A stretch of 64,000 nt of DNA from an uncultured Enterobacteriaceae bacterium (GTDB lineage Bacteria; Pseudomonadota; Gammaproteobacteria; Burkholderiales; SG8-39), in contig CAZYVT010000007.1 in the NCBI GenBank assembly GCA_964651335.1, positions 24,893 through 88,892 of the forward strand, read 5' to 3'. The position numbers and the translations under genes are program-made. Of this stretch, positions 10,393 through 33,880 are shown piece after piece (the stretch's first letter is position 1; each line of letters starts with the position of its first letter). A model generated the notes under the pieces. It had not been told where the DNA came from. It was given only the letters and a program-made list of their open reading frames with translations, and ran no database searches.

Positions 10393-11985
10393 TCACGTTC
10401 GCGTCTCGCGGCACAGCATCCTGAAATGCGCTCCCTTCATGTCGTTCACGTACTCGAGCGCGGCGCGATTGGCAGCGCACAGTTCGCGTGCGAGATAAAG
10501 CCCGAGCCCCGTTCCCTTGCTCTCGGTGGTGAAAAAGGGCTCGAACAGCTGCGCCTGATCTTCCAGCGCGACACCCGGGCCGTTGTCAACAACGTTCAAT
10601 TCTACTTGACGGGCAAGCGCTCGAAGCTCGATCCGCACGCTGCGCGGTTCCGTCCTGGCGTAACGCACCGCGTTTCGCAGCAGGTTCCAGAGCACCTGGC
10701 GCAGGTGCTCGCGGTCGAACTCGACCGCGGCCTCGCGCGCGGCCGTAAGCGCAAAACGGTCGCTCGGCACGGATTCGTTGGCCGCGAAGTCCTCCAGGAA
10801 TCCCGGCAGCCAGGCCTTGAGATCGATCCGCTCGGCGGCGATCCGGTCGCGGCGGTTGAGCTGCATGATGTCCGACACGAGGCGGTCCAGCCGCCGCGTG
10901 TTGTCGCGGATGATCTGCGTCAGGCGTTCGCGATCATGCTCGCCCCTGTCCTCCTCGAGGAGATCAACCGAATGACTGATCGCCGACAGCGGATTGCGGA
11001 TCTCGTGCGCGATGTTCGCCGTCAGCCGGCCGAGTGCCGCGAGCTTGAGCTGCCGGGCCTGCTCGCGCGAGCGCGAGACGTCCTCGACGAACAGCACGGT
11101 GAACTCTTCCCCCGCGCCGGCCTCGACGAGCCGCACGCGCAGTTCCCGGCCGTGCACGTCGACGTCGGCGGGCGGGCTCCAGACTCGCTTTTCGCGCCAG
11201 GCGCGCCAGGTCTCGCCGAACGCCGGTACCAGCCGGGCGAGTTCCGTTCCGACCAGCGCCTCGACGTCAAGCAGGCGCTGCGCCTGGGGGTTGTGCTGCG
11301 TTACTCGCCCCTCGCGGTCCAGTACCAGCACGCCGTCCTGCATGTCGGTGATCACCAGTTGGTTGACCCGCATTTGATTCTCGAGCTCCTGGCCGCGCTG
11401 GCGCGCCAAGAGCTCGCTCGCGGAAACCCGCTGCGCCAGCCAGCTGGTGACGCCGGCGCTGGCAAAGCAGCCGATCGCCAGCAGCCCCGGCTGCAGGTAG
11501 TTCGCTTCGGGCGCGTCGAACGCGAGCACCCAGTAGCCTTGCTCGAGCAGCAGTGCGATTGCGGCGAGCGCTGCATACAACAGCGAAAGCCGCCGCGGCG
11601 CGACCAGCGCCGCGCCAATGAGCGAAATCAGCAGCATGATGCCCAGGCCGCTGCGGATCCCGCCGCTCGCATACATGAGCAGAACGATGGCGACGACATC
11701 GGTAAAGGCGTGCACCGACAGCTGCAGATTGAATCGGTCGTGCCACCCGCGCAGCAGCCAGTGAAACGCCACGCCGAAGGCGAGGTAGGCGCCGCAAACG
11801 CCCCGAAAAACATCGATCCGGTGCGAGCCCAGGTTGAACGTGTCGCCGTACATCGCCGACGCCCCGAGGAACAGCGTCGCGATTCCGATGCGGTACAGGT
11901 TGAAATACCGCAGCGAGATCCAGAACGATTCCGGCTTGCCCGGATCGCTTCCGAACAGGCCCGAGTAGCGCGGCGGTGCGTCCAT
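10393..11985 (-). CDS. pilS: sensor histidine kinase PilS (multi-TM N-domain, PAS, HisKA, HATPase)
   Basis: Start at MDAPPRYSG gives 530 aa. There are about six hydrophobic helices, then the H-box LTANIAHEIRNPL and the N/G boxes (NLLRNA, DNGPGV, GTGLGL). The ATG overlaps the stop of the PP0621-like gene. Confidence 0.75.
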   Translation of the reverse strand: MDAPPRYSGLFGSDPGKPESFWISLRYFNLYRIGIATLFLGASAMYGDTFNLGSHRIDVFRGVCGAYLAFGVAFHWLLRGWHDRFNLQLSVHAFTDVVAIVLLMYASGGIRSGLGIMLLISLIGAALVAPRRLSLLYAALAAIALLLEQGYWVLAFDAPEANYLQPGLLAIGCFASAGVTSWLAQRVSASELLARQRGQELENQMRVNQLVITDMQDGVLVLDREGRVTQHNPQAQRLLDVEALVGTELARLVPAFGETWRAWREKRVWSPPADVDVHGRELRVRLVEAGAGEEFTVLFVEDVSRSREQARQLKLAALGRLTANIAHEIRNPLSAISHSVDLLEEDRGEHDRERLTQIIRDNTRRLDRLVSDIMQLNRRDRIAAERIDLKAWLPGFLEDFAANESVPSDRFALTAAREAAVEFDREHLRQVLWNLLRNAVRYARTEPRSVRIELRALARQVELNVVDNGPGVALEDQAQLFEPFFTTESKGTGLGLYLARELCAANRAALEYVNDMKGAHFRMLCRETRT

Positions 11986-29320: not shown

Positions 29321-31516
29321 GTGCCCCGGCGGCAACGGAGAGTACGCGGGCAGGGGGCCGGCTTGAGCGCGGACACGGCGAAGTACTGGGCCTTCATCAG
29401 CTACAGCCATCGCGATGCGAGGGTGGCCACGGCATTGCAGCGCGCGCTCGAAACCTACCGCCTCCCCCGGCGGCTCGTGGGCACGGTCACCGCGTTGGGT
29501 GCGCTACCCGCCTTCCTCAAGCCCGTCTTCCGCGACCGCGACGAAATGCAGGCGGGCGCGGACCTCAAGGCCACGGTCCGCGAGGCCCTGGAGCAAAGCC
29601 GCTACCTCATCGTCGTGTGCTCGCCCGAGGCGGTGCGCTCGCCCTGGGTGAACCGGGAAATCGTCGAGTTCAAGAAGCTGCACGGCGAAGCGCGCGTGCT
29701 CGCTCTCATCGCCGCGGGAGAACCTTTCTCCAGCCGCATGCCCGGGCGCGAAGCCGAGGAATGCTTCCCTGAGGCGCTGCGCTTCGCGCTCACGTCTGCG
29801 GGCCTGCCGCAGGGCGAGGCGCTGGAACCCATCGCCGCCGACCTGCGCCCGCAGGGTGACGGCAAACGCCGGGCAATGCTCAAGCTAGTGGCCGGCATGG
29901 TGGGCGTAGGCGTGGACGAACTGGTGCACCGCGATGCGCACCGCCGCGCGCGCCGCATGGCGATGGTGGCGAGCGCCTCGCTGGCGGGCATGGCGGTGAT
30001 GGCGGTGCTCACCGTCATGGCCGTGCAGTCGCGCATCGAGGCGCAAAGCCAGCGCGTGCAGGCCGAAGACCTGATCGAGTTCATGCTCGGCGACCTGCGC
30101 AAGAAGCTCGACGCCGTCGGGCGCCTCGACGTGCTCGACTCGGTGGGGGAAAAAGCGCTCGGCTACTACGCCCGGCAGGAAGCCGACCGGCTCGATGCCG
30201 ATGCACTGGGGCGCCGCTCGCGCGCCATCCACCTCATCGGCGAGATGCGCGAGCAGCGCGGCCAGCTCGAGGATGCGCTCGCCGCCTTCCAGAGCGCTGC
30301 CGACACCACCGCGCACCTGCTCGAGCGCTCGCCCTACGACGGCCAGCGCATCTTCGACCATGCGCAAAGCGTCTACTGGGTCGGTTACATCGCCTGGCAG
30401 CGCGGCCAGGCGAAGGCGGCCGAGGAGGCGTTCCGCAAGTACCTGGAGCTCGCGCAGCAGTTGGTACGCATCGACCCGAACAATCTCGACTGGGAAGTGG
30501 AACTCGCATCCGCCCATATCAACCTCGGTACCGTGCTGCTCGGCACTTCACGTCCCGCTGACGCCCTGAAGGAATATGCCGAGGCGAGCGAGCCGCTTTC
30601 GCGGCTTTCCGCAAGGCGCCCTGAGCTCGTGTTCGAACTTGCGCACAACTTTGGCTGGATCGCGAAAGCGCGGGAGGCGCTCGGGGACTACGACGCTGCC
30701 ATCGCGGCGCAGCAGACCAAGATCGAGCTGTTTCGCAAGGTGCCGGCTGCCGAGAAGAACAAGCAAGTGCAGCGCGGCCTGCAAAACGGTGCGGTCGAGC
30801 TCTCACTTCTTGAATTGGCAAGGGGCGATCTGAAGGCCGCCGAACAGTATGCACGCGACGCAGTGCAGCGTGCCGATGCACTCGTCGCAGCCGACCCGGA
30901 AAACCGTTTCTGGCAGGCGCAGCTCCATGTCGCGGACTGGGTCCTTGGCGAAGCGGAAGCCGCACTGGGGAATCGCGGCGAGGCGCGCCAGCACGTTCAG
31001 CGTGCGCTCGATGGAGCAGACAAGCTGATCGCGATCGACGCCTCGGTCGCGAACGTGCAAGTCAAATTAAAAGGCCGCGCGCTGAAGCTCGCGGCTCAAC
31101 TCGCGCTGGCGGAGAAGCGCAACGGACCCGGCGCCGAAATCGAAGCTTATCTAGCCAAGATCGGCGACTTCATCGCGCAGGGCAAAATCCTGGACAATGA
31201 GCAGGGCGTGATCGTGGCTCAGGCCGAACTGATGCTGGGCGATTTGCTCGCCGCCGAGCAAAGGCAAGATGCCGCAGCAACCCATTGGCGTGCCGCCGCC
31301 GAGCGGGCGCAGCAATACGCCGAGTATGGTAACGTGCCTGCTCTTACCCTGCTCGCGCATGCGCGGCTTCGGCTGGGGTCGGTCGAGCAGGCCAGCAAAA
31401 TCGCCATGCGTATCGAGTCCACCAGTTACCGGCACCCCGCGTATGCCGATCTTGTCCGTCTGCTATCGAACGGTGCGGGGCCGTCGATCGCGCAACCAGT
31501 ATCGAGGAGGCCCTAA
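29321..31516 (+). CDS. TIR domain - single TM - TPR-like repeat protein
   Basis: N-terminus reads YWAFISYSHRD...VFRDRDEMQAGADL...YLIVVCSPEAVRSPWVNREIVEF (a TIR with the SxWxxxE glutamate). A linker AADLRPQGDGKRRAMLKLVAGMVGVGVDELVHRD leads to RRARR plus the hydrophobic span MAMVASASLAGMAVMAVLTVMAV. About 490 aa of helical-repeat sequence follow. The alternative start is TTG at 29363, with AGGGGG 5 nt upstream. Confidence 0.8.
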   Translation: MPRRQRRVRGQGAGLSADTAKYWAFISYSHRDARVATALQRALETYRLPRRLVGTVTALGALPAFLKPVFRDRDEMQAGADLKATVREALEQSRYLIVVCSPEAVRSPWVNREIVEFKKLHGEARVLALIAAGEPFSSRMPGREAEECFPEALRFALTSAGLPQGEALEPIAADLRPQGDGKRRAMLKLVAGMVGVGVDELVHRDAHRRARRMAMVASASLAGMAVMAVLTVMAVQSRIEAQSQRVQAEDLIEFMLGDLRKKLDAVGRLDVLDSVGEKALGYYARQEADRLDADALGRRSRAIHLIGEMREQRGQLEDALAAFQSAADTTAHLLERSPYDGQRIFDHAQSVYWVGYIAWQRGQAKAAEEAFRKYLELAQQLVRIDPNNLDWEVELASAHINLGTVLLGTSRPADALKEYAEASEPLSRLSARRPELVFELAHNFGWIAKAREALGDYDAAIAAQQTKIELFRKVPAAEKNKQVQRGLQNGAVELSLLELARGDLKAAEQYARDAVQRADALVAADPENRFWQAQLHVADWVLGEAEAALGNRGEARQHVQRALDGADKLIAIDASVANVQVKLKGRALKLAAQLALAEKRNGPGAEIEAYLAKIGDFIAQGKILDNEQGVIVAQAELMLGDLLAAEQRQDAAATHWRAAAERAQQYAEYGNVPALTLLAHARLRLGSVEQASKIAMRIESTSYRHPAYADLVRLLSNGAGPSIAQPVSRRP
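29384..29725 (+). other. TIR domain region of the 29321-31516 protein
   Basis: Residues ~22-135. The putative catalytic Glu (NRE) is encoded at 29657-29659. Confidence 0.7.
29957..30025 (+). other. predicted transmembrane helix (residues ~213-235)
   Basis: A run of 23 hydrophobic residues, preceded by HRRARR. By the positive-inside rule this places the N-terminal TIR in the cytoplasm. Confidence 0.6.
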
Positions 31517-31855
31517 ATGGCAATTGTGCCCATTACCGTCATACCTGCATCATCGTCTTGCGCCCCTCCCACCGCCGGTGCAAACGTCAGGGAGCCTACG
31601 ATCTTCATGTTCACACTCGCCGACCCGGCACATTGGGAATGGCAGGGAACGTCCCCTGTTGTCGTCCAAAATGGCGCGCAGGAATTCTACGATTCGTTCA
31701 TCCACCCCAACGGCAGAAATGTGGTGCTGTTCGACAAAAATACTGACGGTACCGGTAGCCCTACCCCCGCTACCAAATACAAGTACACCGTGACGATCGT
31801 CAACATAACAACCGGCGTGCCAATGTCAATCGATCCGTTCATTCAGAATCAATGA
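31517..31855 (+). CDS. small hypothetical protein (112 aa), translationally coupled to the TIR gene
   Basis: The ATG lies directly after the upstream TAA (TAAATG). The composition looks beta-rich (KYKYTVTIVNITTG) and the protein ends IDPFIQNQ. It has no signal peptide and I recognise no family. Its GC is lower than its neighbours by eye. Confidence 0.55.
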   Translation: MAIVPITVIPASSSCAPPTAGANVREPTIFMFTLADPAHWEWQGTSPVVVQNGAQEFYDSFIHPNGRNVVLFDKNTDGTGSPTPATKYKYTVTIVNITTGVPMSIDPFIQNQ

Positions 31856-31979
31856 GCAGTAGCGTCTGAGCCTCCGCGGCGGATTGTGATATCGCCTGAG
31901 GTGGCGGCGGCGTGAGCGTCAACGTTCTTATAACCGACGTCCTTGCCGCCGCCAATTGCGGCGCGCCGCCGAATCAATA

Positions 31980-33791
31980 ATGACCGCCCCTGCGCACACG
32001 GCCATCCGCGAAGCGCTCGATGCCGGCCTAAACACCGAGGCGCTGGACCTAGCCCGCAAGGCGGTGCTCGACAGCCCGAGCGCCGCCGAGCCCCATTACC
32101 TCGGCGCACTGGCCTGTGTCCGGATGGGTGCGATCAGTGAAGCGGAAAAATGGCTTGCGCGGGTCGATCGCGAGCTTCTCGGGCATAGCCCGCTCGCGGC
32201 CGATTTCTGGAGCCTTGCGGGAAGGATCGCAAAGGAGCGTTATTCCGCCGCGAGCGATAAGACTCAGGCGGCTGCGCGTGAGCGCGCTCGCATTGCGATC
32301 GATTGCTATCAGCAAGCGTTCGGGATCAGCGGTTCTGCCTATCCCGCGGTCAATGCCGCCACCTTGGCGATGCTTTCCGGCGATGCGGCGCTTGCCCGCA
32401 CCCTCGCACGCCAAGCTCTAAGCACACTGGGTACGAGCGGCGATCACTGGCACCACGCGACCTCGGGCGAAGCCCAGTTGCTCCTCGATGAATTTGACGA
32501 GGCTCGCGACCATTACAGAGAAGCCTATCGACTGGCCGGAAACAGGTTCGGCGATATTGCCTCGATGCGCCGGCAACTCCTGCTGATCGGTTCGACCGCC
32601 GCGCGCGAGCTGCTGGAAGTCATTCCCGCCCCGCGTGTCATCGCGTTCTCCGGGCACATGATCGATCACCCGACCCGGACCACGCCGCGATTTCCCGCCA
32701 GCCTCGAGGGGAAAGTGGCGTCCGCCATACGGGAAACACTCGCGAGTCTCGGTCCCTCGATCGGATACACGCAGCCAGCCTGCGGCGCCGACATCCTGTT
32801 TCTCGAGGCGATGCAGGATTCGGGCATGCAAACCCAGATCGTGCTGCCCTTCGCGAAGGCTGATTTCGTCGAAGCAAGCGTGAGCTTCGCCGGAGGGACG
32901 TGGGTCGCCCGCTTCGAGCGCGTTCTCGACCGTGCGACCCGGATCGTCCTGGCTACCGAAGAGGCTTTCCTGGGAGATCGCGTGTTATTCGAGCACGCGG
33001 CGCACCTGATCCAGGGAATGGCATTCCTGCGCGCCAGGGAGCTCTCGACGCAGCCGCTGACGCTGACCGTGCACGAACCCGGATCGCGGGAGCTTGCTGG
33101 CGGTACCGCGGCGAGCGCTCGAATCTGGACGCGTAATGGAGGCGAGGTCGAAAACATCGACCTGGCGGCGCTGCGCGGCAGCGATCCGGTCGATCGGGAA
33201 GGGGATGACGAGGACGGGTCGGTAAATCCCCCCGATCAATCCGCGCGGCCCAGAAGCTTGAAGAGCCTTTATTTCGCCGACATCAGCGGCTTTTCCAGGA
33301 TGCCGGAAGAGTACACACCCCATTTCGTGGAAATGTTTCTGGAAACCTGCAAAAGAACGCTCGATTCACTCGAGCATCAGGCGGTCGACGCCAACACGCG
33401 CGGAGACGCTCTTTTCATCGTCTTCGAGCTGCCGAGCCACGCGGCGGAATTCGCCGTTCGCTTGCAAAAAGCGGTGAGCAGGATCGACTGGCCTGCGTTC
33501 GGACTTGCTGAGGAAACCCGCGTCCGGATGGGACTTCACACCGGTCCGGTCTTCGACATCTTCGATCCGGTCATGTCGAAGACCACGTTCTATGGAACGC
33601 ACGTAAACCGGGCGGCCCGGCTTGAGCCGATCGTGCAGCCTGGACATATCTTTGTGACCGAAGCATTTGCAGCTTCGCTCGTCGCCGATAACGAGGATCG
33701 CTTCACCTGCGACTACATCGGCGCCATGCCGCTCGCCAAGCAGTTCGGCGAAGCGCGGTTGTACCGGCTGCGGTGGGCCGACGAGGACTGA
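31980..33791 (+). CDS. multidomain protein: helical (TPR/DUF4071-like) N-domain + Rossmann (SLOG-like) module + class III adenylate/guanylate cyclase domain
   Basis: ATG at 31980; the track ORF begins at TTG 31956. N-domain: SAYPAVNAATLAMLSGD. Middle module: RVIAFSGHMIDHPTRTTPRFP...ACGADILFLEAMQDSGMQTQIVLPF. C-terminal cyclase domain: LYFADISGFS, RGDALFIVF, RMGLHTGPV, GTHVNRAARLE. Confidence 0.8.
   Translation: MTAPAHTAIREALDAGLNTEALDLARKAVLDSPSAAEPHYLGALACVRMGAISEAEKWLARVDRELLGHSPLAADFWSLAGRIAKERYSAASDKTQAAARERARIAIDCYQQAFGISGSAYPAVNAATLAMLSGDAALARTLARQALSTLGTSGDHWHHATSGEAQLLLDEFDEARDHYREAYRLAGNRFGDIASMRRQLLLIGSTAARELLEVIPAPRVIAFSGHMIDHPTRTTPRFPASLEGKVASAIRETLASLGPSIGYTQPACGADILFLEAMQDSGMQTQIVLPFAKADFVEASVSFAGGTWVARFERVLDRATRIVLATEEAFLGDRVLFEHAAHLIQGMAFLRARELSTQPLTLTVHEPGSRELAGGTAASARIWTRNGGEVENIDLAALRGSDPVDREGDDEDGSVNPPDQSARPRSLKSLYFADISGFSRMPEEYTPHFVEMFLETCKRTLDSLEHQAVDANTRGDALFIVFELPSHAAEFAVRLQKAVSRIDWPAFGLAEETRVRMGLHTGPVFDIFDPVMSKTTFYGTHVNRAARLEPIVQPGHIFVTEAFAASLVADNEDRFTCDYIGAMPLAKQFGEARLYRLRWADED
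32631..32960 (+). other. Rossmann-like beta-alpha-beta module (SLOG/LOG-DprA-like by pattern only)
   Basis: Alternating predicted strand and helix segments with a G-A-D...E helix-cap motif. The assignment is from pattern memory, not from a search. Confidence 0.4.
33255..33770 (+). other. class III nucleotide cyclase homology domain
   Basis: Metal-binding Asp codons at 33279-33281 and 33405-33407, and the Asn-Arg pair in HVNRAARLE. Asn (33393-33395) sits at the position 4 residues before the second Asp, which is Lys in adenylate cyclases and Glu in guanylate cyclases. Confidence 0.75.
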
Positions 33792-33803: not shown

Positions 33804-33880
33804 TGGTCGGGGCGGTGAGATTCGAACTCACGACCACCGGCACCCCATGCCGGTACGCTACCAGACTGCGCTACGCCCCG
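33804..33880 (-). tRNA. tRNA-Pro (anticodon GGG)
   Basis: The reverse complement CGGGGCGTAGCGCAGTCTGGTAGCGTACCGGCATGGGGTGCCGGTGGTCGTGAGTTCGAATCTCACCGCCCCGACCA folds as a cloverleaf. The anticodon loop is ATGGGGT. Confidence 0.9.

Follow-up and report, generated by a model that had tools for sequence, protein, structure and literature searches.

A TIR protein with a predicted receptor-type topology and a candidate sensor cassette shared with other signalling outputs in diderm bacteria

Introduction

Can a bacterial TIR domain be controlled from outside the cytoplasm? To our knowledge, every characterised bacterial TIR signalling system (the Thoeris types) has been described as sensing infection inside the cytoplasm. 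The question is raised by a three-gene locus in a stretch of 64,000 nucleotides, hereafter the window, of contig CAZYVT010000007.1 (assembly GCA_964651335.1) from an uncultured bacterium that GTDB places in Burkholderiales, SG8-39. The first gene encodes a protein in which a TIR domain and a long region of tetratricopeptide repeat (TPR)-like helices are separated by one predicted transmembrane (TM) helix. The second encodes a small beta-sandwich protein, which we call the partner, and the third (gene 3) a protein combining TPR-S, SLOG-like and class III nucleotidyl cyclase domains. A sequence-only reading of the window had proposed that the TIR protein is a receptor, with the TIR domain in the cytoplasm and the repeats in the periplasm. 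Here we followed up this proposal; all evidence on the cassette is computational. Domain content, the single hydrophobic helix, charge bias, module swapping and gene linkages were computed directly. We consider it probable that the protein crosses the membrane once with its N-terminus inside and its C-terminus outside, and we lean towards a Thoeris-like pathway, running from TIR through a nucleotide to an effector, that would be triggered from outside the cytoplasm through this single-pass receptor.

Results

A TIR domain and a TPR-like solenoid are separated by one predicted TM helix

The open reading frame (ORF) at 29321-31516 on the forward strand encodes 731 amino acids when counted from GTG 29321. 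The sequence-only reading had hesitated between this codon and TTG 29363, noting the better Shine-Dalgarno sequence at the latter. TTG 29363 is the favoured start, giving 717 amino acids, because gene callers use it on identical and related DNA (P0002, 717 amino acids, 100% identity), the Shine-Dalgarno sequence AGGGGG lies 5 nucleotides upstream of it, and the aligned methionine that starts the homologues matches it. No Shine-Dalgarno sequence is found upstream of GTG 29321.

Pfam TIR_2 (PF13676) matches residues 25-129 of the protein (E 9e-12; score 46 bits, cut-off 28 bits), and the ThsB_TIR (E 3e-7, 31.2 versus a cut-off of 21.2) and TIR (23.6 versus 21.3) models also score above their cut-offs. 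TPR_8 matches residues 348-380 (E 7e-8, 32.5 bits, cut-off 25.7 bits), with weaker TPR matches reaching approximately residue 570. In NCBIfam the matches are weak and only at the level of TIR; Thoeris type III ThcB4, for instance, scores 13 bits where its cut-off is 220 bits. An AlphaFold2 model built from a 30-sequence alignment (overall predicted local distance difference test score, pLDDT, 83) has a flavodoxin-like TIR fold over residues 10-180, in which strands 10-13, 81-86, 112-116 and 157-160 alternate with helices (pLDDT ~80-90). The hydrophobic segment is modelled as a low-confidence helix, followed by one long juxtamembrane helix and by an alpha-solenoid of ~20 helices spanning residues 257-704 of the 717-residue form, mostly with pLDDT >90. 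In Foldseek searches against PDB the solenoid matches the TPR superhelices of LGN/Pins, OGT and designed CTPR proteins (E ~1e-8), and the whole receptor model matches nothing beyond such generic superhelices. We term the solenoid TPR-like because its repeats of ~42-45 residues exceed the canonical 34. The long TPR-like C-terminal part that had been proposed from the letters alone is thus borne out as a solenoid of ~450 residues.

The glutamate that had been singled out as being of the catalytic type, encoded at 29657-29659, is invariant across 30 homologues and lies inside a conserved SxWxxxE motif. It also aligns, weakly (E 0.04), with the glutamate of SSTWCLEEL (motif SxWCxxEL) in the plant TIR protein Roq1, which we take to be the catalytic position of TIR NADases. 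Invariance and alignment together support an intact catalytic-type glutamate, and the domain may act as an NADase or a cyclase.

The hydrophobic helix stands out clearly. In a Kyte-Doolittle (KD) hydropathy scan with a 19-residue window and a threshold of 1.6, residues 213-235 (731-residue numbering) form the sole segment above the threshold, with a peak of 2.02; the second-best peak, 1.55, falls within the TIR domain. Summed simply on the Hessa scale, the TM 21-mer comes to +0.55 kcal and every other segment to at least +11. Both calculations agree with the lone hydrophobic span preceded by HRRARR of the sequence-only reading, whose ORF, TIR domain, glutamate codon and TPR-like part likewise proved real. 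A segment above KD 1.6 is present in 75 of 81 homologues, and the remaining six have a similar, weaker one. Since Ser, Gly and Leu residues of the helix are nearly invariant and one Ala is invariant, its sequence suggests specific helix packing and not a passive anchor.

The sensor module is found behind four types of output domain

One homology search returned more than 4,100 full-length matches of ~715 amino acids. Their names are generic ('TIR domain-containing protein', 'TPR repeat protein') and the family is unnamed. Among GTDB species-representative genomes, at least 385 stretches encode a relative; 80 loci were taken from these for comparison, and neighbourhood counts were made over 84 loci. 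The carriers among the 80 loci are all diderms. They are Betaproteobacteria (Rhizobacter, Methylibium, Rubrivivax and others), Gammaproteobacteria (Lysobacter, Luteimonas), Alphaproteobacteria (Sphingomonas, Sphingomicrobium, Caulobacterales) and also Opitutae. Rhizobacter sp. SG703 and Sphingomonas alba SE158 (loci L021 and L049) are examples of carriers that can be cultivated. Thirty aligned members share 52-83% identity across classes. By column identity, conservation peaks in the TIR domain, linker and juxtamembrane helix (0.79-0.82); its minimum, 0.53, lies in the distal half of the solenoid.

The module formed by the TM helix, the juxtamembrane helix and the TPR-like solenoid, up to the C-terminal YRHPAY motif, recurs with 35-57% identity behind other N-terminal domains. 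At three loci (L042, L061, L083) a Ser/Thr kinase replaces the TIR domain and is followed by the same module at ~50% identity; the Pkinase match in L083 has an E-value of 8e-42, and P0252 is a further kinase version. P0240 consists of Trans_reg_C and BTAD domains followed by the TM-TPR module, and P0223 of Guanylate_cyc and nSTAND1 NTPase domains followed by it. An exhaustive search with the module yielded 5,995 cluster representatives, of which 735 reach E <= 1e-30, with length classes of ~700-740 amino acids for the TIR type and ~880-935 for the kinase type. Short matches (~500-620 amino acids) were considered as sensors consisting of the TM-TPR part only. On inspection, nearly all of the examined ones proved to be truncated forms, of the kinase or TIR type, from partial contigs, and therefore they give no evidence for a signal-anchored stand-alone sensor. 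In P0237 (596 amino acids) the place of a soluble output domain is taken by an N-terminal region containing three hydrophobic helices (ELQRRNVIRTGTAYAVSAWVILQ...).

Module swapping bears on the orientation of the TIR protein. NAD+, ATP or GTP, and DNA are cytoplasmic, and the Pkinase, BTAD and Guanylate_cyc+nSTAND1 domains found in front of the module need cytoplasmic substrates or DNA. Since all four output types, TIR included, use one of these, the N-terminus is predicted to be inside, and with a single TM helix the TPR part would therefore be outside. The charge distribution points the same way. Lysine and arginine residues in the 15-residue flanks of the TM helix average 5.2 on the N-terminal and 3.2 on the C-terminal side in 75 homologues, and the N-terminal side has the higher count in 66 of the 75 and the lower count in none. 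Charge bias, module swaps and the exported versions of the partner (see below) thus support the proposed arrangement of TIR inside and TPR outside, the placement of the C-terminus outside being deduced and not proven.

A small partner gene follows the sensor module

The partner gene starts with ATG 31517, directly after the TAA stop of the TIR gene, and GAGGAGG lies upstream of this ATG, so that the two genes are predicted to be translationally coupled. An ORF is found at the same place in the first three relatives examined, and in 58 of 79 loci a motif scan detected an ORF downstream whose end matches DP.[IVL].N. With a hidden Markov model (HMM) built from these ORFs the partner family was recognised in 73 of 84 loci, which are essentially all loci with room downstream. 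It follows the TM-TPR module with any output: behind the kinase at L042, L061 and L083, behind BTAD at L085 (E 1.5e-15) and behind the nSTAND1 version at L086 (E 8e-5), where the ORF had been left uncalled. Because the gene is present behind the kinase, BTAD and nSTAND1 versions, the partner goes with the TM-TPR module and not with TIR.

The partner family is divergent. Its mean column identity is 28%, with M1, Y90, D106, P107 and N111 retained. The partner gene has a GC content of 53% (63% at third codon positions, GC3), the TIR gene of 66% (GC3 81%) and gene 3 of 63%; the low value fits fast divergence of the partner family. Many loci have a second, tandem copy of the partner ~450-550 nucleotides downstream (L001, in the 10583-10980 region, L012, L019, L034, L043, L045, L046, L049, L052, L060, L063, L066, L069, L070 and L079), and the window has one copy. 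No family was found for the partner in Pfam, PADLOC or PDB profile searches.

AlphaFold2 predicts an all-beta sandwich (pLDDT 89.7). Its best fold match in PDB is SO1698 of Shewanella oneidensis, annotated as 'aspartic peptidase' (Foldseek E 2e-5, template-modelling score 0.57-0.63), and a search of BFVD gave only generic immunoglobulin (Ig)-like or beta-sandwich matches. The mutants of SO1698 in PDB (S114A, P115A, D116A, P117A, Q118A) surround an Asp-Pro site near its C-terminus. We take SO1698 to belong to DUF1888 and to undergo self-cleavage at Asp116-Pro117. SO1698 (PDB 3n55 and its mutants) and the partner both have an Asp-Pro near the C-terminus, in the partner six residues from its end, and the two sites are likened by this position only, the proteins having no sequence-level match in Pfam or PDB searches. 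By this analogy, the Asp-Pro of the partner may be a site of self-cleavage or part of a docking tail.

Export or anchoring signals were detected in 5 of 84 partner proteins: a Sec signal peptide at L010 and L068, a lipobox (LLAG|C) at L036 and an N-terminal TM helix at L012 and L050. If the partner binds the TPR part, such variants fit a periplasmic TPR; the majority without a signal does not. Export by the twin-arginine translocation (Tat) route, with the partner hitch-hiking on an internal twin-arginine anchor, was also considered. The TatP-type pattern RR.[FGAVML][LITMVF] occurs ahead of the TM helix in 58 of 157 TIR-type and in 0 of 16 kinase-type members, and the idea was rejected because kinase-type members lacking the pattern still have partners without a signal.

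SLOG-like genes often accompany the TIR version

When neighbouring ORFs were clustered all against all, a recurrent domain emerged that has the pattern VGVTGHR...LAEGADR...VLPF...WDG..G.GGT, and an HMM of this domain finds it in 49 of 84 loci. It matches several SLOG models weakly but repeatedly: DNA_processg_A (E 0.005-0.02), YAcAr (0.075), YpsA (0.34-0.7), DprA (3uqz, 0.095) and ShosA (0.002). We therefore call it SLOG-like, with moderate confidence. No ThsA-type model matches the SLOG-like neighbours.

The domain comes in three forms. At 27 loci, downstream of the partner gene, it is fused to a C-terminal part of ~395 amino acids with 2-4 hydrophobic helices, which matches Pfam DUF4231 (E 3e-5) and, weakly, SLATT_3, SLATT_6 and SLATT_1; this DUF4231/SLATT-type fusion is the form in most alpha- and gammaproteobacterial loci. 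At ~14 loci it is a standalone protein of ~200-230 amino acids, encoded in 11 cases directly upstream, where its gene reaches or overlaps the TIR start, and in 3 cases downstream at contig ends. In ~6 loci including the window it is fused to a class III cyclase. Three non-TIR loci were checked (L083, L085, L086) and none has a SLOG-like gene, which, in this small sample, fits a specific linkage of SLOG-like genes with the TIR versions.

In the window the SLOG-like domain is the middle part of gene 3, a candidate signal receiver and effector. When the whole TPR-S/cyclase protein was tried as the conserved neighbour, it was found only in close relatives and a few others (~6 loci), and hence conservation in gene 3 concerns the SLOG-like domain and not the cyclase. 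Gene 3 has two possible starts: its ORF opens with TTG 31956, and an alternative ATG lies at 31980 (MTAPAHT...). At L022, from an uncultured betaproteobacterium, the frame past the partner ORF runs into caspase-like His/Cys motifs (FINCHGG ... AAECCYG). This extension suggests another effector type linked to the cassette, in a contig that may have frameshifts.

The three-gene locus lies between a yegS-like lipid kinase gene and a tRNA-Pro(GGG) gene (33804-33880, reverse strand), which immediately follows gene 3. tRNA genes are common insertion points. Neighbourhoods in relatives vary; that of L003, for example, contains Fic, antitoxin and transposase genes. Features of the locus are collected in Table 1.

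Table 1. Features of the three-gene locus and their positions in the window
Feature	Positions	Strand	Basis
TIR-TM-TPR gene	29363..31516	+	717 amino acids from TTG 29363; frame open from GTG 29321
TIR_2 domain, predicted cytoplasmic, and conserved linker (EECFPEALR ... EPIAADLRP)	29390..29902	+	Pfam, AlphaFold2, column identity 0.79-0.81
Glutamate at the catalytic position of NAD-cleaving TIRs (in SPWVNREIV)	29657..29659	+	Alignment with homologues and Roq1
HRRARR, positive flank directly before the TM helix, predicted cytoplasmic	29939..29956	+	Sequence, flanks of homologues
Single predicted TM helix, MAMVASASLAGMAVMAVLTVMAV	29957..30025	+	KD scan, Hessa sum, conservation
Juxtamembrane helix, motifs EFMLGDLR and GRLDVLD	30026..30187	+	Column identity 0.82; best conserved part of the sensor module
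TPR-like alpha-solenoid, ~20 helices, predicted extracytoplasmic	30131..31474	+	AlphaFold2, Foldseek, Pfam TPR_8
C-terminal motif YRHPAYADL, Arg and Pro invariant	31427..31453	+	Homologue alignment
Partner gene, 112-amino-acid beta-sandwich protein	31517..31855	+	AlphaFold2; family in 73 of 84 loci
Invariant Asp-Pro (D106-P107) of the C-terminal DPxIxN motif of the partner	31832..31837	+	Invariance in family alignment
Gene 3, TPR-S, SLOG-like and class III cyclase; candidate signal receiver/effector	31956..33791	+	Pfam, hhalign
TPR-S domain of gene 3	32043..32369	+	Pfam PF20308, E 7e-14
SLOG-like domain of gene 3	32637..33173	+	hhalign to the recurrent domain: probability 98.1%, E 1e-13, 158 columns
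Class III nucleotidyl cyclase domain of gene 3	33264..33734	+	Pfam Guanylate_cyc, E 7e-15

Discussion

A model for the locus

The sequence-only proposal took the TIR gene by itself and did not cover the conserved partner or the SLOG-like effector genes. These genes tell more about function than the topology does, and together with it they suggest the following model. The TIR protein would be a single-pass inner-membrane receptor with its TIR domain in the cytoplasm and its juxtamembrane helix and ~450-residue solenoid in the periplasm. The TM-TPR part and the beta-sandwich partner would form a mobile two-gene sensor cassette that has been joined to different cytoplasmic outputs. The solenoid, probably with the partner, may read a cue at or outside the inner membrane, and the signal would travel through the juxtamembrane and TM helices to alter the association state of the cytoplasmic TIR domains (self-association). 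These would then cleave or cyclise NAD+ into a messenger derived from ADP-ribose (ADPR). In the window, the TPR-S/SLOG-like part of gene 3 may bind this messenger and turn on the cyclase, giving a cyclic nucleotide as output, and in other lineages the SLOG-like/SLATT protein may permeabilise the membrane instead. Orientation, NADase or cyclase activity of TIR, binding of ligands by the SLOG-like domain and TPR-S, the function of the partner and any part in phage defence are inferred from the computed features.

Relation to known systems

Signalling from TIR to SLOG and SLATT proteins is already established. In Thoeris type I a SLOG domain binds 3'cADPR, in type VII a SLATT effector responds to cADPR, and the type VIII effector has a TPR predicted by Burroughs and Aravind for TIR signalling (bioRxiv 10.64898/2025.12.03.692087). 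The locus in the window resembles these systems in that a TIR domain with a catalytic-type glutamate is linked genetically to SLOG-like, SLATT/DUF4231 or TPR-S proteins, so that the same logic is predicted. It differs in several respects. ThsB proteins are described as soluble cytoplasmic sensors, whereas the TIR domain here is part of a membrane-spanning protein of 717 amino acids with a large predicted periplasmic TPR sensor and its own small partner. The effector in the window ends in a class III cyclase. At the level of profiles the resemblance is marginal for ThsB in PADLOC (E 0.001) and absent for ThsA-type models, and the system in the window is known from sequence alone.

Bacterial TIR-TPR proteins of more than 700 amino acids have been noted before (PMC7075850). 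The TIR-TPR proteins of group 6 (Toshchakov and Neuwald 2020, PMC7075850), the BcTir/Tpr pair and PDB 9m0n/9umd likewise have an N-terminal TIR and a C-terminal TPR; the descriptions consulted mention no TM helix between the domains. These known proteins belong to another TIR subgroup and other phyla, and they are not known to have a partner gene. PDB 9m0n/9umd, an 824-residue 'tetratricopeptide repeat protein', matches the TIR region weakly (E 0.09) with its SxWVxxEI motif aligned, and may be the closest solved TIR-TPR protein. ToxR/CadC-like regulators and Hanks kinases with extracytoplasmic sensors belong to the same topology class, in which one TM helix joins a cytoplasmic output to a periplasmic domain, and direct homologues of the TM-TPR module carry BTAD/Trans_reg_C or Pkinase outputs. 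What distinguishes the present protein from them is the TIR output and a sensor module with its own conserved partner. Compared with animal Toll-like and IL-1 receptors the order is reversed, the TIR being N-terminal and the sensor C-terminal, and the repeats are TPR-like, not leucine-rich or Ig. The TIR domains of animal Toll-like receptors act as scaffolds, whereas the bacterial TIR considered here keeps the enzyme-type glutamate. The resemblance to Toll-like receptors is thus one of architecture, an analogy, not homology of whole proteins.

A literature search found no paper on a TIR-TPR protein containing a TM helix. In the literature searched, the TM helix between TIR and TPR, with the receptor-type topology that it would give, is undescribed, and so are the partner gene and the recurrence of the cassette of TM-TPR module and partner with outputs of the kinase, BTAD and STAND types.

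Alternative explanations

Several observations weigh against the proposed pathway, and each alternative draws on some of them. The partner is the main difficulty. No export signal is found in 79 of 84 partner proteins, the window copy included, whose first residues are already a beta-strand of the fold. Such partners should be cytoplasmic, and it is difficult to see how this majority could bind a periplasmic TPR directly. We have therefore retained an explanation in which the sensor cassette acts from the cytoplasmic side: the helix would only anchor the protein, or the TPR would be reachable from the cytoplasm in some other way, and the TPR would directly bind the cytoplasmic partner, much as the cytoplasmic TPR sensors of the STAND/Avs and RRNPP types bind their ligands. 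Translational coupling of the partner suggests a stoichiometric complex, the C-terminal repeats of nSTAND1 proteins usually regulate the NTPase from the same side of the membrane (compare P0223), and the C-terminal domain has no disulfide-type signal. Cysteine makes up 0.28% of this domain versus 1.26% of TIR, and counts of 0, 1, 2 and 3 cysteines, seen in 50, 88, 80 and 20 proteins, have no even-number bias. A uniformly hydrophobic helix of 23 residues with charged flanks, however, is too short for a hairpin and cannot keep both domains on one side, its N-terminal flank is consistently the more positive one, and three partners (L010, L036, L068) carry clear Sec or lipoprotein signals. We regard this explanation as quite unlikely. 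An inverted topology, with TIR outside and TPR inside, would also suit the cytoplasmic look of the partner and nothing else. The C-terminal flank never carries the higher charge, the protein lacks an N-terminal signal peptide that could export a folded TIR part of 200 residues, and the NAD+, ATP (for the kinase, cyclase and NTPase versions) and DNA (for the BTAD version) that the outputs need are all cytoplasmic; we consider this topology extremely improbable.

Other observations leave the topology as predicted and concern the enzyme and the pathway. The TIR domain could be a non-enzymatic oligomerisation device or scaffold in a housekeeping factor for envelope signalling or assembly, the SLOG-like neighbours being incidental. 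The TIR protein is, at the identities given above, unusually well conserved across classes for an immune sensor, and in the window it is surrounded by the housekeeping genes surE, pcm, nlpD and pheST, a core-genome setting. The same module drives kinase and DNA-binding outputs, as is typical of ordinary signal transduction. PADLOC makes no system call, its ThsB match (E 0.001) reaching only 16 bits. No SLOG-like gene is found at 35 of 84 loci, ~20 of which have ample flanks, and the matches behind the SLOG assignment itself are weak. Against a scaffold speak the invariance of the catalytic-position glutamate in its conserved motif and the SLOG-like genes of the other 49 loci, which often overlap the TIR start or lie directly downstream and are absent from the three non-TIR loci that were checked. 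The SLATT/DUF4231 fusions, moreover, resemble known effector types of nucleotide-signalling systems. On balance we judge a scaffold role unlikely and keep to the Thoeris-like, externally triggered pathway as somewhat the better bet. Whether that pathway serves anti-phage defence or general envelope or cell-cell signalling is a separate matter. SLATT-type effectors, adjacency to tRNA-Pro and variable neighbourhoods in relatives favour defence, and the high conservation, housekeeping surroundings and kinase and BTAD paralogues favour general signalling; we put defence at a little short of an even chance.

The partners without a signal also prompted a reading in which the partner is released. The cassette would then be a Gram-negative outside-in receptor for danger or kin signals: the partner would cleave itself at the invariant Asp-Pro or be freed at lysis, and its DPxIxN tail would bind the periplasmic TPR groove of the same or neighbouring cells and thereby switch on TIR, or whichever of the kinase, BTAD and STAND outputs a paralogous cassette carries. 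This is speculative and we give it little chance. If true, it would account for partners lacking an export signal, and the system would be a bacterial analogue of Toll-like receptors or of RRNPP-type peptide sensing, with NAD-derived messengers.

Implications

If the proposed receptor model is true, this would be the first bacterial receptor-type, outside-in TIR signalling, the arrangement used by animal Toll-like receptors. Since kinase, DNA-binding and STAND-NTPase outputs all occur with this sensor cassette, the identity of its ligand would explain several signalling families. The linked SLOG-like effectors of the SLATT and cyclase types make the hypothesis of a route from TIR through a nucleotide to an effector directly testable.

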